From an uncultured Gammaproteobacteria bacterium (lineage in GTDB: Bacteria > Patescibacteriota > Microgenomatia > UBA12405): DNA of 64,000 nucleotides. The stretch spans positions 10,330-74,329 of the forward strand of contig CAZVMP010000002.1 of assembly GCA_964628885.1 (NCBI GenBank), in the 5' to 3' direction. Position numbers and translations under genes: made by a program. Of this stretch, positions 3,466 through 13,510 are shown piece by piece; position 1 is the first letter of the stretch; each line of letters begins with the position of its first letter. The notes under the pieces were generated by a model, which was not told where the DNA came from, did no database searches, and was given only the letters and a program-made list of their open reading frames with translations.

Positions 3466-5352
3466 ATGTCCGATATCTTATCAGGTCTTAATCCTCAGCA
3501 ACAGCAAGCCGTTACTTATATTGGCTCCCCTCTATTGTTATTGGCTGGGGCTGGTTCTGGTAAAACTCGAGTTTTGACTCATCGAGCCGCCTATTTTGTT
3601 GATCAAAAGATTGCCTCTCCTGATCAAATTGTTCTATTAACTTTTACTAATAAAGCCGCTGGAGAAATGAAAAATCGTCTCCAAAAACTTATTTCCACAA
3701 CCCATAAATCACCAAACTTATTTGCCGGGACTTTTCATTCCTTTTGTTGTCAGATTTTGCGTCGTGATGGTCTTCGGATAGGGATTAATCCTCAGTTTAT
3801 TATCTACGATACCTCAGATCAGGAAAATGTTATTAAATCATCACTCCTTGATCTTAATCTTAACCCTAAAGAATTTAAGTCTTCTAGTCTTCTTTATTTC
3901 ATTGAGTCTGCCAAGAATTCTTTTCAAACCCCCTCTGATGCCGCTTCTCAAGCCCATGGATTTTGGCAGGAATACGCCAGCAAAGTTTATCGTCTCTATC
4001 AAAAAAAAATGGAGGAATATCAAGCTCTAGATTTTGATGATCTTTTATTCAAAACTGTTAGTCTGTTTACAGAACACCCTAAAGTTTTAGAAAAATATCA
4101 AGACATATACCGCTTTATTCTAGTTGATGAATATCAGGATACTAATCAAATTCAGTATCTATTAACCAAGCTTTTAGCCCAAAAATATCACCATCTAACC
4201 GTTGTTGGTGATGCCTCCCAAGCCATTTATGGTTGGCGCGGAGCTAATTTTAAAAATCTTATGAACTTAACTGTCGACTTTAAGGATACTAAGACTATTA
4301 ATTTAGAGCAAAATTATCGTTCCACTCAAATAATTCTTAATGCCGCTAATTCTGTTATTTCTAAAAACATTTCTCATCCGATTTTAAAACTTTTTACCCA
4401 AAAACAGTCGCAGGATAAGATTAAGTTATATGAGGCTCCTTCTGAAATTGCTGAAGCCGAATTCATTGCCCAAAAAATAAAATTTATTCAGACTAATCAG
4501 CAGATTCCTTTAAGAAATATTGCCGTTCTTTATCGTATGAACGCCCAATCCCGAGTGATTGAGGAGGCCTTTTTAAAATATAGTCTTCCTTATGTTCTTA
4601 TTGGTGGCACCAGATTCTATGAAAGAGCTGAAATCAAAGATCTGTTGGCTATGATTCGTTTTGCTACCAATCGTCATGATCAAATTTCTCTTGATAGGTT
4701 AACCAAGGTTTTTGGTAAACGCCGTTTCTCTGTTTTTATGACTCATCTTAATAATCTTGATATTACTTCTCTAACTTCACTTCAAATTATAGAGTCTCTT
4801 ATTACTGGCTCCGGTTATCTTGACCGTTATGATTCTAAAGATGAGGATGATCAAAGAAAGATAGAAAATATTAAAGAATTAAAATCTGTTGCTACTACCT
4901 TTCCTAAAATCAGTCAATTTTTAGAAAATGTTGCCTTAGTTCAGCAGGAATATTCTCTTCAGGAAAAAAATAAAAAGAAAGAAAATCGTGATGGGGTTAG
5001 ACTAATGACTCTTCATGGGGCTAAGGGTTTAGAATTTGAAGTTGTTTTTATAGTTGGCTTTGAAGAGGGGATTCTACCCCACTCTCGTTGTTTAATTGAT
5101 GAATCTGAAGTTGAAGAAGAGCGTCGCCTTTGTTATGTTGGGATTACCCGAGCCAAAGATTATTTATATCTTTCTTATGCCAGTCAGCGCCTTTATTTTG
5201 GTAAAAGTAGTCTTAATGAACCTAGTCGTTTTTTAGCCGACATTCCAAATGATTTGGTAGAATTAGACGAACCTCAGGAAATCATTAGGGATTATCGTCA
5301 TCGTCACAAATCCTCTGATGATGACCTTATTTATGACCCCGATATTTATTAA
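3466..5352 (+). CDS. UvrD/PcrA/Rep-family ATP-dependent DNA helicase (short form)
   Basis: Walker A GAGSGKTRVLTHR, a TFTNKAAGEM motif, DEYQDTN (motif II), and a C-terminal VTLHGAKGLEF...VGITRAK helicase motif VI region. Confidence 0.85.
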   Translation: MSDILSGLNPQQQQAVTYIGSPLLLLAGAGSGKTRVLTHRAAYFVDQKIASPDQIVLLTFTNKAAGEMKNRLQKLISTTHKSPNLFAGTFHSFCCQILRRDGLRIGINPQFIIYDTSDQENVIKSSLLDLNLNPKEFKSSSLLYFIESAKNSFQTPSDAASQAHGFWQEYASKVYRLYQKKMEEYQALDFDDLLFKTVSLFTEHPKVLEKYQDIYRFILVDEYQDTNQIQYLLTKLLAQKYHHLTVVGDASQAIYGWRGANFKNLMNLTVDFKDTKTINLEQNYRSTQIILNAANSVISKNISHPILKLFTQKQSQDKIKLYEAPSEIAEAEFIAQKIKFIQTNQQIPLRNIAVLYRMNAQSRVIEEAFLKYSLPYVLIGGTRFYERAEIKDLLAMIRFATNRHDQISLDRLTKVFGKRRFSVFMTHLNNLDITSLTSLQIIESLITGSGYLDRYDSKDEDDQRKIENIKELKSVATTFPKISQFLENVALVQQEYSLQEKNKKKENRDGVRLMTLHGAKGLEFEVVFIVGFEEGILPHSRCLIDESEVEEERRLCYVGITRAKDYLYLSYASQRLYFGKSSLNEPSRFLADIPNDLVELDEPQEIIRDYRHRHKSSDDDLIYDPDIY

Positions 5353-5353
5353 T

Positions 5354-6361
5354 ATGACCACCAGACTTTTAACCAATAAGGATAAAACAAAATATAATTC
5401 TGTTATTAAGCACCCCGTCCAAACTTGGGAATGGGGGGAATTCCAACAGAGTCAAGGACACCAGGTTTTTAGATTTGGTGTTTTTGATAATAATAAGCTT
5501 ATCTCTGCTTTCACCATTAGTTTCCATAAAATTCCCAAAACTAATCTTTCTGTCGGAACCATTTTACGCGGTCCAAAAATTGACGAAGACATTCTTCAGG
5601 TTATTAAAAAAGTTGCCTTAAAACAAAATGCCATTTTTGTTAAATTAGAGCCAGATGTTGCCAAGACCCAAGCTTCTATGCAGTTTCCCATGTTAGTCCC
5701 TTCTCCTAAAGTTGCTTTTTATCCTCACACTTTTATTATTGATACTAATAAAACCGAAGACCAGCTTATTGCTAAACTTCATCCCAAGACTAGGTATAAT
5801 ATCAAAGTTGCCAATCGTCATGGAGTTGAAGTTAAAAGATTAACTACCGATAAGGGTTTTGAAATTTATCTTAAATTATTACTTAGTACCACTAAACGTC
5901 AAGGGTTTTATCTTCATACCGCTAAATATCACCGGGATTTATGGAAAATACTTAAAAATACCGATATTCCTCATATTATCTTAGCTTCATATCAAGGCCA
6001 AGTATTATCGGCATTTATGCTTTTTAAATTTAAAGATCAGTTATTTTATCCTTATGGAGCCTCTTTAGATATTAATCGTCAAGTTATGGCTCCAACCCTT
6101 CTTATGTGGGAGGCTATTAAATTAGCAAAAAAACTTAATTGTCATACTTTTGATATGTGGGGTTGTCTTGGTCCTGATGCCAAAGAAGGCCAAAATGGCT
6201 TTGGTTTTCATCGATTTAAACAAGGTTTTGGAGGTGAACTTTTTGAATATCTTGGAACCTATGACCTTGTTATTAATCCTTTTTTGTATTATTTATATAA
6301 TTTAGTCGATAAATTACGCTGGCGCTTACTTAGAATTAAGGCCAGGATTACCAAAAGGTAA
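5354..6361 (+). CDS. FemAB-family aminoacyl-tRNA-dependent peptidoglycan interpeptide-bridge transferase
   Basis: KTRYNIKVANRHGVEV, FYLHTAKYHRDLW and FMLFKFKDQLFYPYGAS resemble FemX/FemA-family motifs. The ORF track starts at 5318, overlapping the helicase. ATG 5354 lies 2 nt after the helicase stop. Confidence 0.6.
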   Translation: MTTRLLTNKDKTKYNSVIKHPVQTWEWGEFQQSQGHQVFRFGVFDNNKLISAFTISFHKIPKTNLSVGTILRGPKIDEDILQVIKKVALKQNAIFVKLEPDVAKTQASMQFPMLVPSPKVAFYPHTFIIDTNKTEDQLIAKLHPKTRYNIKVANRHGVEVKRLTTDKGFEIYLKLLLSTTKRQGFYLHTAKYHRDLWKILKNTDIPHIILASYQGQVLSAFMLFKFKDQLFYPYGASLDINRQVMAPTLLMWEAIKLAKKLNCHTFDMWGCLGPDAKEGQNGFGFHRFKQGFGGELFEYLGTYDLVINPFLYYLYNLVDKLRWRLLRIKARITKR

Positions 6362-6449: not shown

Positions 6450-7133
6450 CTAGTTTAATTTTGGTAGTGTTACCACTTCATCAACATTTGGAGATCCGTA
6501 AGTCAACGATTCCGGTAAATCCCTAACACCAAGTGCTTTGGCTACTCGAGCCACCACATCGCCGGAGGCTTTTGTTCTTTCCGTGTTGTAATCTTCTACC
6601 GCCTTATACCAATCGCTTAAGCTGGCCATTATTTCGTTATATGCTTCATTAACATAACGATTGGTCTCTTTTAAGGATTCAACATCTAGCGACTGTATTG
6701 GCGCTTCAGTTAAAGTCACTGCATAGTTATTAACAGTGATTGCCATGTCCGCTGGGGTAGCTTTAGATTCAACCAACTTACTCAAGTCAATCTTACTAGG
6801 ATCAAGGATATTTCCTTTTTCATCAGTATATTGTGCATTTTGATTTGACAACTTAACTCCAAAATCTGCCAACGATTCTCGGTATACTTTCGTTTTTTCT
6901 ACGTCTGCTTGTAAGTACTTATTGTAGATGTCCAAGTAATTTTGGATTTTGTTAAACCCAAGCATAATTGTCGTTCGACTTTTTGCCGCCGCTTTTTGTG
7001 CTTGTTGGTATACAGAAATCAGTCGATCGTATTGACTTACCACCGAACCGCACCCGCTAAAGGTTAACACTATTACCAACAACAAGATTAATCCCAACAA
7101 CCTTTTTTTCATTAAAAATTCCTCTCTTTCCAA
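6450..7133 (-). CDS. LemA-family lipoprotein
   Basis: Signal peptide plus lipobox (LTFSGC). The C-terminal YNTERTKASGDVVARVAKALGVRDLP matches the LemA C-terminal consensus. It overlaps the upstream TPM gene by 22 nt. Confidence 0.55.
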   Translation of the reverse strand: MEREEFLMKKRLLGLILLLVIVLTFSGCGSVVSQYDRLISVYQQAQKAAAKSRTTIMLGFNKIQNYLDIYNKYLQADVEKTKVYRESLADFGVKLSNQNAQYTDEKGNILDPSKIDLSKLVESKATPADMAITVNNYAVTLTEAPIQSLDVESLKETNRYVNEAYNEIMASLSDWYKAVEDYNTERTKASGDVVARVAKALGVRDLPESLTYGSPNVDEVVTLPKLN

Positions 7134-7648
7134 ATTCTTCTTAAGATTTCATCAGTATTCCTTACAATTGAGTCAATTGCTCCATCAAAATCGTTTTCAT
7201 TAGCATAATTTGCCGCCTCTTCTAACATTGGTCCATAGTCTCCTGGAGTTAACCAAGTTAAGTGTGTTGAAATTTCAATTGTAACTCGGTTGTTTTCAGG
7301 TTTAACATCAGGTCTAATCAACCAAACAATCGCTCTTTGATTTTCAGTATCTCCAAGCTTAACTTTTCGACCCCAATTCATTGCCCAAATTTTTTCATCA
7401 TCAAGTGGGCCGTTGTTTATAATGCCTTTTTGAATAATTATTGCAACTTCTGCAATTTTATCTTCTTTTAATTTTTGAAGAACCCTGTCAGCATTCAAAA
7501 CAACTTTCTGACTTAAGAGACCGTTTTGGTCAACAACCCAATATTTACCAATAGCAGGGAATTCTGGCTGTGTTTTTTTTGTTGTCGTACACGAACTGGT
7601 TGCTATCATTATTATCAAAAAAAGGGTTAAAAGTATTTTTTTATTCAT
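7112..7648 (-). CDS. TPM-domain (TLP18.3/Psb32/MOLO-1-type) lipoprotein
   Basis: Signal peptide plus lipobox (ATSSC). The GKYWVVDQNGLLSQ...AEVAIIIQKGI...WGRKVKLGDTENQRAIVWLIRPD...RVTIEISTHLTWLTPGDYG pattern matches the TPM phosphatase-domain consensus. The LemA/TPM pairing is a known module. Confidence 0.55.
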   Translation of the reverse strand: MNKKILLTLFLIIMIATSSCTTTKKTQPEFPAIGKYWVVDQNGLLSQKVVLNADRVLQKLKEDKIAEVAIIIQKGIINNGPLDDEKIWAMNWGRKVKLGDTENQRAIVWLIRPDVKPENNRVTIEISTHLTWLTPGDYGPMLEEAANYANENDFDGAIDSIVRNTDEILRRIWKERNF

Positions 7649-8639
7649 TCTTTTTTACACTTCCTTCATTAGGTTTAGCAACTAATTTAACAATTCGGTA
7701 ACCTTTTTCTGAACAACCAGCTCTTCCTCCACCAGCACAAGCACAAGCGCAAGCACAACTAGAGACACAACTTGATCCTCGGCCAGAAAAGCTTCCGCTT
7801 CCTCCTCCCGATTTTAAACTACCTCCAGATGAACCACCAATGAACCGACCTCCGCCATATCCACCGCCTCCACTACTTCCGCCACCTGAGCCTCCTCCAC
7901 CAGAAAAGTTGTAAATTAACATAATAACTAGGAGAAATAATATCGAGATGATCATAATTGCTACGATTATAATTATTAAGATATCGGCAAGACTTTTCTC
8001 TTCTTTTTGGAGCATTTCTTCATCATCTATTGAGAAATAGTCACCACCCATCGTAATTGTAATCGCCTTGGCTTTTTGGTTTTCTTTTAGATTTTCTGTT
8101 AAGAAAATCAATTGTCCTGGAGTCTTTTGTTCCAGTTCTGGTTCAACTTTTATAAGTACTATCTCTCCAGGGTTTACCCTTACCCATAATTTTTCGATCT
8201 GGGCAAAATCAAACCAACCAGGAACAAACTTAAATCCATATCCCTCATCCGTTTTATATATCATCCTCTTTTGAAGAATTGAGAAATTAAAACGGAAACG
8301 GTCTCCTTTTAAAGGAAGGTTGATAAAGTTTAATTGAACCTGTGATGTCGATGAAGTAATTGCTTTCGTGTCGCTAATTAATTCTTTTGGTTCATAACTA
8401 ACAATCTCAAAGTTTCTATTTGGAACCCCAACTTGCAAATAAGCCTTCCCGCGTGGAAAGTCAGTTACTGCTTCATAATCAAACTCATAGTTAATTAACA
8501 ATGAGCCATCTTTTTGAGGTTCGATCGAGACGGTATAGCTATGTATCACGTCAGGAGGTGTTGCCGACTGCCCTCCAAGTACCGGTAAGATTAATAATCC
8601 TATTAATAAGACTATTAAAACTAGTAAATTCTTTTTCAT
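7641..8639 (-). CDS. DUF2207-like single-pass membrane protein with a Gly-rich and (Cys-Ala)n cytoplasmic C-terminal tail
   Basis: Signal peptide, then an N-terminal extracytoplasmic domain (YTVSIEPQKDGSLLINYEFDYEAV, DUF2207-like), then a TM helix (ILIIIIVAIMIISILFLLVIMLIY). The tail reads SGGGGSGGGSSGGGGYGGGRF...GRGSSCVSSCACACACAGGGRAGC. The start lies 6 nt after the rSAM stop. Confidence 0.5.
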   Translation of the reverse strand: MKKNLLVLIVLLIGLLILPVLGGQSATPPDVIHSYTVSIEPQKDGSLLINYEFDYEAVTDFPRGKAYLQVGVPNRNFEIVSYEPKELISDTKAITSSTSQVQLNFINLPLKGDRFRFNFSILQKRMIYKTDEGYGFKFVPGWFDFAQIEKLWVRVNPGEIVLIKVEPELEQKTPGQLIFLTENLKENQKAKAITITMGGDYFSIDDEEMLQKEEKSLADILIIIIVAIMIISILFLLVIMLIYNFSGGGGSGGGSSGGGGYGGGRFIGGSSGGSLKSGGGSGSFSGRGSSCVSSCACACACAGGGRAGCSEKGYRIVKLVAKPNEGSVKKNE

Positions 8640-8645
8640 TTATAG

Positions 8646-10028
8646 TCATTCCTTTCTTAGCGGGCAATGGTTTTTACCAGCATTCTTTTTTGCTGACATT
8701 TTACGTTGATTGTTTTTCCATATTTTTTTCCAGTCATCATGAAGCATGTTGCCAAAAGTTTGGCCGTTAAGCCAGCTTTGACAAGGGATAACCTCTCCTT
8801 GAGGAGAGATTGCCATGTTATACAAACAAGCTCCACAGGTTGGGTATAGATTAATTCCAATCTTTTTTAAAACATCTTCATCAAGCTGACCCGGGGAAGT
8901 AAAGCCAATGTTTACTCCAAGCTCTCGACAAGTTTCGACTGCTTTTTTTAAGATTAACTCAAGCGATTCGGCCGTTAGGTTGTTTCCATTTGAAATTTCA
9001 CCAATTGCCTTACCTGCTGGAATTAATCCAGAACAAGTAAAATAACGGACCCCAAGACTTGACAACATCTTAATCATTTCAGGATAATCTTGATTTAAAT
9101 TAAGCAGAGGAGTGTTTACTGAAGTTGATAAACCCGCTGATAGTGCATTTTTAATTCCTTCAACCGTTTTGTTCCAAGCTCCAACTCGACCAACCAATCT
9201 GTCATGAATTTTTGGATTAGAGGAGTATAGGGTTATTTGGATATTATCTAAACTTGCCCTGAATAGTCTTTTGGCCAAATTCACAGTTAGTCCGTAACCG
9301 TTTGTGTTAATTCTGGTTACAAACCATTTAGAATATTCAACCAAATTAATTATATCCTTACGATATAATGGCTCTCCTCCAGTAAAGGTAAGCATTGGAA
9401 CTCCGGCTTTCTTGCACTTATCAATTATTCTTTTCCAGTTTTTTGTTGATAATTCTTTATCAACAACCATCATTTCTGAATTTTCTGCGTAGCAACAACT
9501 ACAGTTTAACTGACATCGACGTTGCCCACCTTCTATCATTGACGAGACAATCAAGTCCATTCTTTGTGGTCCGTTAGCGTACTTTTGATATTCATCATAA
9601 GCATCTCCTTGTCCAATCTCTTCAGGAATTTCTCCGTTAGCTATTCCAATTGCTACTCTAATTATTTCATTCAAGTCAGCAATGACTTCATCTTTTTCTA
9701 CCCTGTAAAAGTGTCTCACTTTTTCGGCAACAGAAAAACAAATTTCCCCAAATTCTTCTTCAGTTATTTCTCTACTATCTGAGAAATTCTCTTGTAGTTC
9801 ATTGAAGAATGTCCGCAGAACCATTGACCACGAAGGGCCAACCGGTACCGCATAGTATCCATCAATAGTCAGTAAACTTGGTGGATCTTTCCAAAAACTT
9901 GGTTTTGGAGGAGTTAAGTGTAGTCTAACGCTTCCAGGTCCTTCTGGGTCAAGAGTTACATGGATCACCCCTTCGTTAAAAGCCTTAAGCTTTCTTCTGT
10001 AATCAGTTACCGATTTTGTAAATTTCAC
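8646..10028 (-). CDS. Radical SAM enzyme with a C-terminal SPASM/twitch-like Cys cluster and an N-terminal extension of about 170 aa (putative peptide/protein-modifying maturase). GTG start.
   Basis: The CQLNCSCCY motif fits CxxxCxxC. A glycine-rich SAM motif (LTFTGGEPL) is present. The C-terminal cysteines are FTCSG...PTCGACLYN...VIPCQSW...NHCP. The N-terminal domain has no recognisable motif. Confidence 0.7.
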   Translation of the reverse strand: MKFTKSVTDYRRKLKAFNEGVIHVTLDPEGPGSVRLHLTPPKPSFWKDPPSLLTIDGYYAVPVGPSWSMVLRTFFNELQENFSDSREITEEEFGEICFSVAEKVRHFYRVEKDEVIADLNEIIRVAIGIANGEIPEEIGQGDAYDEYQKYANGPQRMDLIVSSMIEGGQRRCQLNCSCCYAENSEMMVVDKELSTKNWKRIIDKCKKAGVPMLTFTGGEPLYRKDIINLVEYSKWFVTRINTNGYGLTVNLAKRLFRASLDNIQITLYSSNPKIHDRLVGRVGAWNKTVEGIKNALSAGLSTSVNTPLLNLNQDYPEMIKMLSSLGVRYFTCSGLIPAGKAIGEISNGNNLTAESLELILKKAVETCRELGVNIGFTSPGQLDEDVLKKIGINLYPTCGACLYNMAISPQGEVIPCQSWLNGQTFGNMLHDDWKKIWKNNQRKMSAKKNAGKNHCPLRKE

Positions 10029-10057
10029 TTTTAAAACCCCTTTCTTTATTACCTCTT

Positions 10058-10110
10058 TCGATGAGGTTATAACTAGGCCCCTTACTAAGACCTACTTATA
10101 ACCTCATCGA
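10058..10110. promoter_or_regulatory. Perfect 15-bp inverted repeat (TCGATGAGGTTATAA / TTATAACCTCATCGA, 23-nt spacer) in the upstream region of the rSAM operon
   Basis: Read directly from the sequence. It sits 30-80 nt upstream of the rSAM GTG. It could be an operator or a leader hairpin. Confidence 0.4.
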
Positions 10111-10282
10111 TTAAAACTAGTTTATATTTTTAAAGTTCTATGTTTACGTATTTGCTTTAAATACGGACATATTTGTGGAAGTATAGCACACTATTAACTT
10201 ATAATATGATTTTATATAAACATTTCAATTTGTTTCTATGTATCTAGAGCTAGAAATAAAGAAAATAAGGTAAAATAGCACT

Positions 10283-10585
10283 ATGACATCAAAAAAAATT
10301 TCTCCAGAAGAAGTCAAACGTATCGCTCATTTAGCCCGACTCGAAATCAGTCCTCAAGATGAATTAACGCTTGCAGATCAATTATCAAAAACCGCCTCTT
10401 ATATTGAGATTCTATCCGAAATCGACACCACCAATGTTGCTCCAACTTTTCAAACTCATGGTCAAAAAAATATTACCCGAGACGATTTAGTTGGTGAATC
10501 CTTAACTCAAGAAGAAGCTTTATCTCAAGCCACTGACACTTATAATGGCTATTTTAAAACACAAGCAACTATTAATAAAAAATAA
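10283..10585 (+). CDS. gatC: Asp/Glu-tRNA amidotransferase subunit C
   Basis: ISPEEVKRIAHLARLEISPQDE matches the GatC N-terminal motif. The gene is immediately followed by gatA and gatB. Confidence 0.85.
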   Translation: MTSKKISPEEVKRIAHLARLEISPQDELTLADQLSKTASYIEILSEIDTTNVAPTFQTHGQKNITRDDLVGESLTQEEALSQATDTYNGYFKTQATINKK

Positions 10586-10587
10586 TT

Positions 10588-11976
10588 ATGAATTTAAATA
10601 CCTTAACCTTAATTGAGGCAATAAAAGGAATCAGAGAAAAAAAATTTTCTTCAACTGAGTTGGTTACTAGTTGTCTAACTAGAATTGAGCAGCTTGAACC
10701 AACTCTTAATGCTTTTGTTTCATTGAATAAAGATCAAGCTCTTAAAGAATCTAAATCAATTGATTTAGATAAACCGTTAGCCGGAATTCCTCTTTCCATT
10801 AAAGACAATTTTTGTATAAAAGGTTTTCGTACCACCGCTTCCAGTAAGTTGCTTGATAAATATATTGCTCAATATACTTCCACTGTTGTTCAAAAGTTGA
10901 TTGACGCTGGTGCCATTATAATTGGAAAAACCAATATGGATGCTTGGGCTCACGGTTCCTCAACTGAAACATCAGATTATGGTCCAACTAAAAATCCTTG
11001 GAATCCAAAGTATCTTCCTGGTGGTTCTTCTGGAGGGTCAGCAGCTTCAGTCGCTAGCCATGAAGTAATTGCTTCTATTGGGACCGAAACTGCTGGCTCA
11101 ATTCGTCAACCATCGGCTTGGTGTGGAGTTGTTGGTTTTAAACCAACCTATGGTCGGGTTAGTCGTTATGGAATTATTGCTATGGCTTCATCCATGGATT
11201 GCCCTGGTCCTATTACTAAAACTGTGGATGATACCGCTCTCTTACTCTCACTTATTTCCGGTCACGACCCTAAAGATGCTACCAGTTTACCTCACAAATC
11301 GTTTGTCTCACCGCCACCACTTAAAAATTTAAAAGGTCTGAAAATTGGACTTCCTACCGCCTATTTTCCTGACAAAATTAATCCCCAAATTAAAGATAGT
11401 CTTATTAAAGCCTCTCAGACTCTTAAAAAATTAGGTGCCGAAATTATTGAGATTGATGTTTTAGACCCCAAAATTTCTATTGCCACCTATACCATCTTAC
11501 AGCGCTCCGAAGTTTCTTCTAATCTTGGTCGTTATACTGGAATCCGCTATGGGGGACCCAGATCTGAGTTTGGGGATGAAGCTGTTCGTCGACTTATTTT
11601 AGGGACTCACACTTTATCTAGTGGCCACTATGATGCTTACTATCTCCAAGCCCAAAAGGTTAGAACTCTAATTATCAATGATTTTAACCGTCAGTTTTCT
11701 CAAGTTGACGCTATCATTGGACCAACTTCTCCTACCACCGCTCTTCCAGTTGGCGCCAGTCAGGGTCAAGCTATGTTTGGCGAAATGGCTGATTTGCTGG
11801 TTGAACCTTCAACCTTAGCTGGTCTTCCAGGTATTTCTCTTCCTTGTGGTTTTGTTGATGGACTCCCGGTTGGTCTTCAAATTATTACCCCACAGCTTCG
11901 CGAGGATCTAGCTATTAATATTGCCCGAGTCTTTGAAGCTAATACTGATTATCACTTACTGTCTCCTAAATTATGA
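10588..11976 (+). CDS. gatA: Asp/Glu-tRNA amidotransferase subunit A (amidase)
   Basis: Amidase signature GGSSGGSAASVA plus the catalytic Ser-cisSer-Lys context. Confidence 0.9.
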   Translation: MNLNTLTLIEAIKGIREKKFSSTELVTSCLTRIEQLEPTLNAFVSLNKDQALKESKSIDLDKPLAGIPLSIKDNFCIKGFRTTASSKLLDKYIAQYTSTVVQKLIDAGAIIIGKTNMDAWAHGSSTETSDYGPTKNPWNPKYLPGGSSGGSAASVASHEVIASIGTETAGSIRQPSAWCGVVGFKPTYGRVSRYGIIAMASSMDCPGPITKTVDDTALLLSLISGHDPKDATSLPHKSFVSPPPLKNLKGLKIGLPTAYFPDKINPQIKDSLIKASQTLKKLGAEIIEIDVLDPKISIATYTILQRSEVSSNLGRYTGIRYGGPRSEFGDEAVRRLILGTHTLSSGHYDAYYLQAQKVRTLIINDFNRQFSQVDAIIGPTSPTTALPVGASQGQAMFGEMADLLVEPSTLAGLPGISLPCGFVDGLPVGLQIITPQLREDLAINIARVFEANTDYHLLSPKL

Positions 11977-12061
11977 AAGAAATAATATTTAATTTTTTAC
12001 CTTCTCCCTTTTTAAACAAAAAAGGTTTTAAAATTATCTTAAAATGGAGGAGATCTTTTTT

Positions 12062-13510
12062 ATGACAGTCACTCCTATTATTGGTTTAGAAATTCACTTT
12101 GAACTTCAAACCAAATCAAAGATGTTCTGCAGTTGCAGTGCTAGTCATTTTCAAGTTGAACCAAATACTCACACCTGTCCCGTCTGTTTGGGTCTCCCTG
12201 GAGCCCTTCCTGTTCCCAATCAGACCGCCTGTGATTACTGCATCAAAATTGGATTGGCTCTTGGTTGTACTATTAATCAAGAAACTTTTTTTGAAAGAAA
12301 AAATTATTTTTATCCTGATTTGCCAAAAAGTTATCAGATTACTCAGCTTCAACAACCTTTCTGTATTAATGGTCAGATAGTCGTCTCCGGACACACCATT
12401 AGAATTAATCGGGCGCACATGGAAGAAGATACTGGTAAATCAATTCATCAAAATATTAATGGAGTTGATTCGACTCTTTTAGATTACAATCGTTCAGGAG
12501 TTCCTTTAGTAGAAATTGTTTCTGAGCCCGACATCTTATCTCCGGAAATGGCCAAGGACTATCTTCTCAAGATACAACAAATTATTCGATATATTGGTAT
12601 TTCTGATGCCGACATTGAAAAAGGGAGTATGCGCTGTGAACCGACGGTCAACCTTAAAATTATAAACAAGGGTCAAACTTTTTATACCCCTCTAGTAGAA
12701 ATTAAAAATGTTGCCTCATTAACCGGTGTCCAAAACGCTATTCGCTATGAAATTGACCGACAGCAACAAGATTTTATTAATACCGGTCAGGTTAAATCAG
12801 CCAACAACAAAACCACTCGTGGTTGGGATGCTGTTAAAAATCAAACTTTTCTCCAGCGGGAAAAAGAGGGGAGTGCTGATTATCGTTATTTCCCCGAGCC
12901 AGATATTCCCCCGATTATCTTAACCAACGACCAGATCCAAGCTATAAAAGCCACTCTTCCAGAGTTACCGGAACAAAAAATTGCTCGATATCAGCAGGAT
13001 TTCCATTTAAATGATTATGACGCTAATTTATTAGCCTCAGATATAAATTTTGCCACTGGCTTTGAAACTGCTATCAGTCAAAACCAAACCCCTCAGATGA
13101 CTAAATTTGTTGCCAACCTGTTTCTTGGTCCCATTAAAACCTTCCTTAACGAATCTCAAGGCTCACTTGATTGTCAGAAAATAAAGCCAGTTTTCTTTAA
13201 TAATTTATTTACTGCCGTTTCTAAATCCCAAATCTCTGCCACCGTTGCTAAACAAGTAATTGTCGACAGCTATACCACTGGCGTTGACCCGGTAGAGATT
13301 GCTAAATCTAAAGGATTAATTCAAGTTTCTGACACCGACCAACTTCAAAAATTAGCCCAAATGGTGATTGATCAAAATCCTAAAGCTGTTACTGATTATC
13401 AAAAGAATCCCGCCTCTATTGGCTTTCTTATTGGTCAGTTAATGAAGGCTTCAGTTGGTTCTGCTAACCCACAGTTAGCCAGGGAAATTTTAGAAAAAAT
13501 TCTCCAATAA
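12062..13510 (+). CDS. gatB: Asp/Glu-tRNA amidotransferase subunit B
   Basis: MTVTPIIGLEIHFELQTKSKMFCSC matches the GatB N-terminus. GGAGGAG lies 8 nt upstream of ATG 12062. The ORF-track start at 12044 is less likely. Confidence 0.9.
   Translation: MTVTPIIGLEIHFELQTKSKMFCSCSASHFQVEPNTHTCPVCLGLPGALPVPNQTACDYCIKIGLALGCTINQETFFERKNYFYPDLPKSYQITQLQQPFCINGQIVVSGHTIRINRAHMEEDTGKSIHQNINGVDSTLLDYNRSGVPLVEIVSEPDILSPEMAKDYLLKIQQIIRYIGISDADIEKGSMRCEPTVNLKIINKGQTFYTPLVEIKNVASLTGVQNAIRYEIDRQQQDFINTGQVKSANNKTTRGWDAVKNQTFLQREKEGSADYRYFPEPDIPPIILTNDQIQAIKATLPELPEQKIARYQQDFHLNDYDANLLASDINFATGFETAISQNQTPQMTKFVANLFLGPIKTFLNESQGSLDCQKIKPVFFNNLFTAVSKSQISATVAKQVIVDSYTTGVDPVEIAKSKGLIQVSDTDQLQKLAQMVIDQNPKAVTDYQKNPASIGFLIGQLMKASVGSANPQLAREILEKILQ

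Follow-up and report, generated by a model that had tools for sequence, protein, structure and literature searches.

Radical S-adenosylmethionine (SAM) maturases acting on a cysteine-rich target are already known, and the closest described examples are the maturases of sactipeptides and ranthipeptides (SkfB, AlbA, CteB, SCIFF). A comparable gene pair is examined here in a 64 kb stretch of contig CAZVMP010000002.1, assigned to the Patescibacteriota (the window, i.e., the whole stretch of DNA that was analyzed), where a four-gene operon encodes a radical-SAM enzyme, a membrane protein carrying a Cys-Ala motif in its tail (the tail protein), a TPM-domain protein and a putative LemA-like protein. 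As in the sactipeptide and ranthipeptide maturases, which are its best structural matches, the enzyme is organized as an N-terminal domain that may resemble an RRE (recognition element for peptides that are made by the ribosome and modified after translation, RiPPs), a radical-SAM core and a C-terminal twitch/SPASM region, and its gene lies beside that of the Cys-rich target. However, their target is a short precursor, whereas here it is the tail of a membrane protein of 300–430 residues with a conserved ectodomain; moreover, no protease or exporter is conserved around the gene pair, and the enzyme holds half of the SPASM motif. The scores of the enzyme family against the NCBIfam models of these maturases are low, with 65 bits for SkfB (cut-off 300), 52–64 bits for AlbA (cut-off 850) and 54–78 bits for StsB (cut-off 625).

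Other systems are partly similar. QhpD/QhpC and the anaerobic sulfatase-maturating enzymes (anSME) follow a comparable concept, in which Cys-containing parts of a protein are altered by a SPASM-family enzyme and the protein goes on working as such; QhpC, a small subunit of the periplasm, is not the tail of a membrane protein, and anSME works without an RRE and with two auxiliary clusters. An anSME structure (4k37) is found among the fold matches of the enzyme, for which no sequence-level membership was found. The ACGX system (TIGR04340) also combines a radical-SAM/SPASM enzyme with a target made of short Cys-Ala/Gly repeats, but the present enzyme reaches 50 bits where the cut-off is 400, and its target is no small repeat peptide. 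To our knowledge, canonical LemA/TPM (YgcG)/DUF2207 modules contain neither a radical-SAM gene nor a (CA)4GGGRxGC motif. The window and several loci of the candidate phyla radiation (CPR) and of the Chloroflexota share with these modules a TPM protein, a LemA-type protein and a protein with a Gly-rich tail whose ectodomain is probably related to the DUF2207 N-terminal domain, but differ from them in having the pair of enzyme and tail protein as their invariant core. For the modules themselves, a LemA-DUF2207 pairing was noted (PMC12631010) and a chaperone-like role of TPM in the assembly of membrane complexes was proposed (PMC11237479). Neither Pfam (2025) nor NCBIfam (June 2026) holds a model for the enzyme family, the tail-protein family or the N-terminal domain, and in the source records the proteins are annotated as “radical SAM protein,” “hypothetical protein” or “YgcG.” The searchable literature gives no account of the motif, of the Cys-Ala repeats, of membrane-anchored radical-SAM substrates or of radical-SAM genes associated with DUF2207, LemA or TPM, though one may have been published elsewhere. 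New here are the class of target and the connection with TPM and LemA. From the comparisons below, the radical-SAM enzyme probably modifies the cytoplasmic motif of the tail protein, the product staying on the membrane protein.

A two-gene core with a conserved Cys-Ala motif

Full-length relatives of the enzyme, N-terminal domain included, number in the thousands, and at least 552 orthologous places were found in species-representative genomes. Relatives at 41–60% identity occur in Clostridia, CPR, Chloroflexota, Treponema, Anaeroplasma and Bacilli, cultured carriers including Lachnospiraceae bacterium CE91-St56 and Brotocaccenecus cirricatena CLA-AA-H272. In three contexts, taken from three phyla, the next gene encodes a protein with a signal peptide and a transmembrane (TM) segment ending in ...SCACACACAGGGR[AV]GCS.... 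This arrangement is general: a tail-family gene lies directly downstream, on the same strand, in 86 of the 86 enzyme loci examined. Among the 85 loci scanned for the motif, 69 have its strict form and 8 a GSGR or SSGR variant, while 7 are cut by a contig end and 1 is apparently disrupted. When the open reading frames (ORFs) of the 86 loci were clustered, the enzyme (86/86) and the tail protein (86/86, with 114 ORFs) were the only conserved families. Two clusters of intermediate frequency correspond to antisense shadow ORFs inside the enzyme gene, and among genuine families a generic ABC ATPase comes next (19/86). No protease or exporter family recurs in these 86 loci, and no tetrapyrrole or molybdopterin gene is conserved near the enzyme in the loci examined, the clustered ones included.

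The pairing also holds in the opposite direction. When metagenomic DNA was scanned for the motif alone, an orthologue of the enzyme adjoined 81 of the 82 evaluable ORFs, i.e., those motif-bearing ORFs with enough upstream sequence, and the two genes usually abutted or overlapped by 1–6 nt. The sole exception (L199) was rejected as a case of motif without enzyme, because its 5′-truncated gene is joined to unrelated, high-GC, compositionally foreign DNA, probably on a chimeric contig. Besides, the same ectodomain is carried by 85 of the 85 full-length ORFs recovered through the motif. Given this two-way pairing and the constant ectodomain, the ectodomain, the motif and the enzyme form an obligate trio, and only the enzyme and the tail protein make up the core, as a two-gene cassette. 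The original prediction, drawn from the letters of the window and their ORF translations, depended on the enzyme gene keeping this neighbor in other genomes and on the homologues of the neighbor keeping a Cys-rich tail; the first is what both searches gave, and almost all homologues retain the Cys tail.

The motif is the most conserved block of the tail protein. In 193 distinct proteins, gathered without use of the motif, the family consensus is (CA)4-GGG-R-[AV]-G-C-[ST]-x-[KR], with each Cys and each Ala conserved at 0.93–1.00; the Ala residues, at 0.93–0.99, match the Cys in conservation. In an alignment across several phyla, where the mean column identity is 34%, the invariant columns are concentrated in C-A-C-A-C-A-G-G-G-x-x-G-C. 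The 13-residue core is encoded by 153 distinct DNA strings; therefore, the motif is not a nucleotide repeat, and “CACACA” as a DNA-repeat artifact was discarded. Where tail-protein paralogues lie in tandem or close together, their cores are 83–97% identical, as against 38–67% for their ectodomains (97% vs. 56–57% in one comparison). Such paralogues were seen in L069 (three motif copies), in L055 (three tail-family ORFs) and in L082, L115 and L158 (two each). A single enzyme gene accompanies them in L069, L055 and L082, L115 and L158 being too short to show one, and one enzyme gene with two or three tail paralogues is expected if one enzyme serves several substrates.

Several variants of the tail were observed. 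In one subclass, CACACACAGGG[GA]AGC[SD]RK..H.CP.C, the Arg is replaced by Gly or Ala and the motif is followed by a His and a CPxC (P0190, P0194, P0203-P0210, P0217, P0222, P0232, P0238, P0239 and L086 5001-5972). This added set resembles zinc-knuckle ligands, and the enzyme family still adjoins the tail gene in L086. A longer Clostridial subclass (L045, L051, L063, L071, L085 and metagenomic ORFs of 410–430 residues) has a CxxC segment near the TM helix (e.g., NCPYCGQSF) and many C-A-[SH]-S repeats upstream of the motif; the count of upstream Cys repeats varies widely by lineage. In L075 (6359-7144), where the enzyme gene is intact, the tail gene stops after the TM helix and a Gly/Tyr-rich segment, before the Cys motif, which could reflect a frameshift, a pseudogene or an assembly error.

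Architecture of the enzyme and of the tail protein

The enzyme belongs to the radical-SAM superfamily, as illustrated by its Pfam Radical_SAM match (PF04055, 79.3 bits vs. a cut-off of 29.5); the Fer4_12 cut-off is also passed and the core aligns with solved radical-SAM structures in Foldseek. In an alignment of 23 orthologues, C172, C176 and C179 of the CX3CX2C motif are invariant, as are C332, C398, C416 and C455, and C401 is nearly so. Residues 398–446 match positions 1–52 of the 67 of Pfam SPASM (PF13186) with 28.5 bits (cut-off 21.5). The full SPASM pattern has seven cysteines (CX9-15GX4C ... CX2CX5CX3C ... C) and two auxiliary clusters. Although the Pfam hidden Markov model is passed, this seven-Cys pattern is incomplete in the enzyme: C398-X2-C401 and C398-X12-G411-X4-C416, the latter corresponding to the first half of the motif, are followed by C455, and the CX2CX5CX3C block is absent from the 23-orthologue alignment. 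With only the first SPASM half present, the domain reads as twitch-like, with one predicted auxiliary Fe-S cluster. This is in line with the original prediction of a radical-SAM enzyme (CQLNCSCCY) with a SPASM/twitch-like C-terminal Cys cluster.

The enzyme could not be placed in a described family. The window enzyme and four orthologues were scanned against the curated NCBIfam cut-offs, and no radical-SAM model came near its own: the best, NirJ2, gave 100–133 bits against 500, and AhbD, PqqE, MoaA, SkfB, AlbA, StsB, MftC, ACGX, GeoRSP and TIGR04133 were further below theirs. All these matches begin near residues 161–174, leaving the N-terminal domain uncovered. A characterized cofactor- or tRNA-modifying family, which the original prediction had set against itself, was thus not matched, and an assignment to heme d1 or heme b synthesis (NirJ2, AhbD), to PQQ synthesis or to MoaA was rejected on scores far under cut-off and on the lack of a pathway context. 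The AlphaFold2 model of the enzyme (predicted local distance difference test, pLDDT, 84.9; predicted template modeling score 0.87) finds its best Foldseek matches in the PDB with SkfB (6efn, E 5e-16), SuiB, BlsE, TigE and CteB (5wgg). The alignments with SkfB, SuiB, TigE and CteB extend over 417–488 columns, as compared with about 306–355 for BlsE, MoaA, anSME and PqqE. SkfB, SuiB, TigE and CteB carry N-terminal RRE domains.

The uncharacterized N-terminal domain, first estimated at about 170 residues, is seen in the alignment and in the model as an extra conserved domain of about 150–165 residues. Modeled in isolation (pLDDT 85.6), it is predicted to fold as one helix, a four-stranded sheet and three helices. 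In an exhaustive profile search of 1.84 billion clusters, the domain was found in 278, always in N-terminal position, and by sequence it is private to the enzyme family. Its sequence matches to solved structures are at chance level only, and the isolated model has no significant Foldseek match. An RRE is a PqqD-like winged helix that binds the recognition sequence of a substrate. Since the whole enzyme matches RRE-bearing maturases, and yet the isolated domain matches nothing significantly, a winged-helix, RRE-like domain for peptide recognition is a plausible reading of the model and not a proven one. A search of 2.9 million viral contigs gave one weak match to this domain (31% identity; L212 3840-4208, on a 7.8 kb IMG/VR contig), which probably represents a piece of bacterial DNA or a region next to a prophage, and a single weak viral match indicates that the cassette is not a phage feature.

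In the tail protein, the signal peptide and the single TM helix are followed by a Gly/Ser-rich linker and by CVSSCACACACAGGGRAGC (residues 291–309). The protein had been described as ending at the Cys motif, which is incorrect, as 23 residues extend beyond the motif block. Among its 1305 homologues, the motif is present in nearly all of the best 120; the cytoplasmic linker of the family ranges from about 35 to 100 residues. The proposed DUF2207-like label holds in part. The window protein itself has no Pfam DUF2207 match, but 5 of 24 homologues match the DUF2207 N-terminal domain (PF09972) below threshold (best E 0.0023), among them P0213 over positions 2–171 of the 172 of the profile, with 17.1 bits against a cut-off of 24.4. 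This suggests a probable remote homology of the ectodomain to that domain, and not membership. No NCBIfam model matches the tail protein, and its sequence matches to solved structures are at chance level only. A Pfam YxzE (“putative bacteriocin”) match on two homologues was discarded, with 24.7 bits against 40 and a coverage of the TM helix and a Gly/His-rich stretch, not of the motif.

The tail is predicted to be cytoplasmic from three types of evidence. Exactly two hydrophobic segments, the signal peptide and a TM helix near residue 228, are found in 102 of 114 family members. The 20 residues before the TM helix contain a median of 1 Lys/Arg vs. 3 Asp/Glu, and the tail a median of 10 Lys/Arg vs. 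4 Asp/Glu. Finally, natural fusions such as P0157 and P0192 run from the ectodomain through the TM helix, the Gly-rich tail with the motif and a Lys-rich stretch (KKKK) to a second TM or lipobox segment and a TPM domain. Since the unfused TPM protein of the window has an export signal, the motif of these fusions must lie in a cytoplasmic loop. As a consequence of this predicted topology, the enzyme and the motif would share a compartment; a tail on the cytoplasmic side was the third point on which the original prediction depended. Fusions of this type (P0157 and P0159, about 557 residues; P0192, P0208 and P0234, about 500 residues; L088 5001-6677; L090 5001-6515) also constitute a Rosetta-stone link between the second and third genes of the window operon.

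Proposed modification of the tail and competing explanations

In the proposed mechanism, the N-terminal domain of the enzyme would dock conserved residues flanking the motif, a cysteine of the tail would approach or ligate the auxiliary cluster, and the 5′-deoxyadenosyl radical would abstract hydrogen from the motif, at its backbone or at a side chain. At least one covalent modification would be installed, for which our best guess, by analogy with SkfB, CteB and related enzymes, is intramolecular thioether crosslinks from Cys sulfur to carbon, of the sactionine or ranthionine type. The product would remain on the membrane protein rather than being released as a peptide. In CPR and Chloroflexota, the TPM and LemA-like proteins, co-transcribed or fused, would probably work together with the ectodomain on the membrane's outer face. 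An action of the radical-SAM enzyme on the Cys-Ala tail, as first suggested, therefore came through the comparisons of context, family and topology. We infer it from the pairing, the conservation of the motif, the predicted topology and the similarity of folds, and the chemistry is more conjectural still. Several observations weigh against it: a conserved adjacency implies a functional link and not an enzyme-substrate relation, a run of four or five cysteines might do no more than hold a metal or an Fe-S cluster, the nearest NCBIfam similarities, far below cut-off, are the tetrapyrrole enzymes NirJ2 and AhbD, and the enzyme has a single predicted auxiliary cluster. Enzymes with one auxiliary cluster (twitch) include small-molecule enzymes, e.g., MoaA and BtrN.

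These observations call for a comparison with other explanations. The tail could ligate a metal or an Fe-S cluster that the radical-SAM protein assembles, inserts or exchanges electrons with, no covalent change being made. A flexible, Gly-rich segment with four or five invariant cysteines would suit such a site, substrate thiolates can bind to the auxiliary clusters of enzymes of this kind, and the idea is kept alive by the CPR subclass with H-x-C-P-x-C after the motif, whose zinc-knuckle-like ligand set includes the last Cys of the motif. However, the Ala residues between the cysteines are as invariant as the cysteines themselves and the GGG-R-x-G segment is fixed, none of which a simple CxCxC site needs; an Ala as fixed as Cys fits a sequence seated in an active site. 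The enzyme also retains a full SAM-cleaving core together with an N-terminal domain reminiscent of peptide recognition, and its closest structural matches modify peptides, so that a metal site appears unlikely. The same structural matches bear on another possibility, rather unlikely in our view, in which the enzyme acts on a lipid, a precursor of the cell envelope or a small molecule and the tail serves to recruit or regulate it. Small molecules are frequent substrates of radical-SAM enzymes with a single auxiliary cluster, the tail protein is anchored in the membrane and, in some lineages, tied to the envelope proteins TPM and LemA, and the similarity to NirJ2, AhbD and MoaA is generic. Against this stand the 86 loci, in which no third conserved gene would supply or use such a substrate, and the eight alternating invariant Cys and Ala residues, which docking does not obviously need.

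That the tail is the core peptide of a RiPP, modified, cleaved and exported with the membrane protein as an oversized leader, is very improbable. An RRE-like radical-SAM enzyme beside a Cys-rich peptide does match sactipeptide and ranthipeptide logic, and several tail copies per enzyme resemble multi-precursor clusters. Nevertheless, the features of a secreted RiPP cluster are missing, the target being a large membrane protein and the 86 loci having neither the protease nor the exporter; moreover, the conserved ectodomain always accompanies the motif, which lies near the C-terminus of a cytoplasmic tail or, in some lineages, in an internal loop between two TM segments. The comparative data effectively refute a coincidental cofactor enzyme, NirJ/AhbD-like or MoaA-like, standing beside a LemA/TPM/DUF2207-type module: NirJ2, AhbD, PqqE and MoaA are indeed its top NCBIfam similarities, but at scores 4–5 times below the family cut-offs, their pathway genes are not conserved nearby, and the adjacency of the tail gene holds across phyla and in both search directions. 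Returning to the modification of the tail by the enzyme, a broader form can be put forward more tentatively, with somewhat less confidence than doubt: the tail proteins may form a widespread and hitherto undescribed class of membrane proteins matured by radical-SAM enzymes, with members in gut Clostridia, CPR, Chloroflexota, spirochaetes and Mollicutes. Their tail would be turned into a structure that remains on the protein and is crosslinked or resembles a cofactor (e.g., a thioether cage, or a metal or redox site derived from the protein), coupling the DUF2207-like domain, together with TPM and LemA where present, to the cytoplasm.

The window operon, its TPM and LemA partners and their significance

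The features of the locus are collected in Table 1. The window ORF list gives the four minus-strand genes as 8646-10028, 7641-8639, 7112-7648 and 6450-7133. Their tight coupling, already noted, was recovered in most respects: the TGA stop of the enzyme gene is separated by 6 nt from the ATG of the tail gene, which is translationally coupled to it, and an 8-nt overlap joins the tail gene to the TPM gene. The 22-nt overlap reported between the last two genes is more likely 1 nt, as the TPM stop and the ATG at 7112 overlap as TAATG and this start is preferred, from the sequence, to the TTG at 7133. The operon is flanked by uvrD/pcrA and a FemAB-family gene on one side and by gatCAB on the other. 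The promoter-like site listed is a weak candidate, consensus sites being no more frequent in the region than in shuffled sequence. Neither a tRNA gene (ARAGORN) nor an Rfam family at gathering threshold was detected in the whole window.

Table 1. Positions, in window coordinates, of the genes and elements of the operon.
Feature	Position	Strand	Basis
Radical-SAM enzyme, 460 residues	8646..10028	-	Pfam Radical_SAM, Fer4_12 and SPASM above cut-off
Enzyme N-terminal domain, residues 1-150; candidate RRE-like substrate-recognition domain	9579..10028	-	
CX3CX2C radical-SAM cluster motif CQLNCSCC, residues 172-179	9492..9515	-	Invariant Cys in 23 orthologues
Enzyme auxiliary-cluster region (predicted), C398 to C455	8664..8837	-	Conserved Cys and Pfam SPASM match
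Tail protein, predicted type-I membrane protein, 332 residues	7641..8639	-	ORF and 1305 homologues
Tail protein signal peptide	8562-8639	-	
Tail protein TM helix, residues 220-243	7911-7982	-	
Tail protein Gly/Ser-rich linker	7770-7910	-	
Tail motif CACACAGGGRAGC, residues 297-309; proposed modification site	7713..7751	-	Near-invariant columns
TPM-domain protein, 178 residues, lipobox-like signal sequence; accessory	7112..7648	-	PF04536
Divergent LemA-like protein (putative), 220 residues from the ATG at 7112; accessory	6450..7112	-	Remote similarity
Promoter-like site TTGAAA-16-TATTAT upstream of the enzyme gene	10201..10228	-	10/12 consensus matches; weak

The third gene encodes a TPM protein, as had been proposed, with 36.5 bits for PF04536 (cut-off 22.1) over positions 1–123 of the 125 of the profile. 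The LemA label of the fourth gene would denote a plausible remote homology at most; LemA proteins combine an N-terminal membrane anchor with a helical domain. The window protein has no Pfam LemA (PF04011) match at E <= 0.1, but over its full length it shares 26% identity (pairwise E 6e-10) with a protein of L090 that has a precomputed Pfam LemA match and holds the same operon position, and phmmer links both groups. Its identity to the fourth genes of L088 and L001 is 43–49%. The lipoprotein nature attributed to both proteins is suggested by lipobox-like sequences (..TSSC and ..FSGC).

Loci with TPM and LemA comprise the window, the CPR loci L001, L086, L088 and L090, the Chloroflexota loci L005 and L013 and a few unassigned metagenomic contigs. 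The genes are arranged as enzyme/tail/TPM/LemA, as enzyme/tail::TPM fusion/LemA or, in one case, with an extra 400-residue membrane protein. The latter (L086 6123-7325), predicted as such and located between the tail and TPM genes, has no Pfam match, and among the fetched loci its relatives were seen only in L086 and L087. In contrast, the Clostridia loci consist of the two-gene cassette without TPM or LemA. TPM and LemA are therefore accessories, dispensable in most lineages, and the enzymatic step that the original prediction saw added to the LemA/TPM module would apply to CPR and Chloroflexota, where these partners are present, and not to the majority of lineages.

The suspected GC-rich block (about 42% against about 30%) and the horizontal acquisition read from it were not borne out by a sliding-window analysis. 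The block has 37.5% GC vs. 35.2% for the window (standard deviation 1.6% for windows of the same size, 5.8% of which equal or exceed it), the housekeeping neighbors gatA and gatB have 39.9 and 38.2%, and 47% is reached only in the DNA coding for the Gly/Cys/Ala tail. A GC island and a recent transfer were thus rejected, as the block is within the spread of the window and below gatA, and the locus is syntenic with Shapirobacteria. Indeed, the order uvrD/pcrA, FemAB-family gene, four-gene operon, gatC, gatA, gatB is common to the window (3466-6361 and 10283-13510 for the flanks) and to Candidatus Shapirobacteria L001, which has an inserted cupin gene and a peptidase-like gene. This synteny places the window in a CPR-type bacterium and points to vertical inheritance within the CPR lineage. 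The window enzyme is about equally near to its orthologues of Clostridia (54–55% identity) and of Shapirobacteria (53%), which hints at an old transfer between phyla.

If the tail is modified as proposed, an envelope module of the LemA/TPM/DUF2207 type would receive its first assigned enzymatic step, and the tail would represent a new class of substrate for RiPP-like maturases. The known targets of radical-SAM/SPASM-type maturases are mainly short peptides that are secreted, along with a few soluble proteins, and a family acting on the tails of membrane proteins would broaden their substrates; mining restricted to short precursor peptides would probably miss such systems. The cassette is common in Clostridia of the human and animal gut, and is also present in CPR bacteria, whose minimal genomes retain few non-essential genes. 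Besides, its linkage or fusion to the obscure TPM and LemA proteins opens an experimental route to their function.

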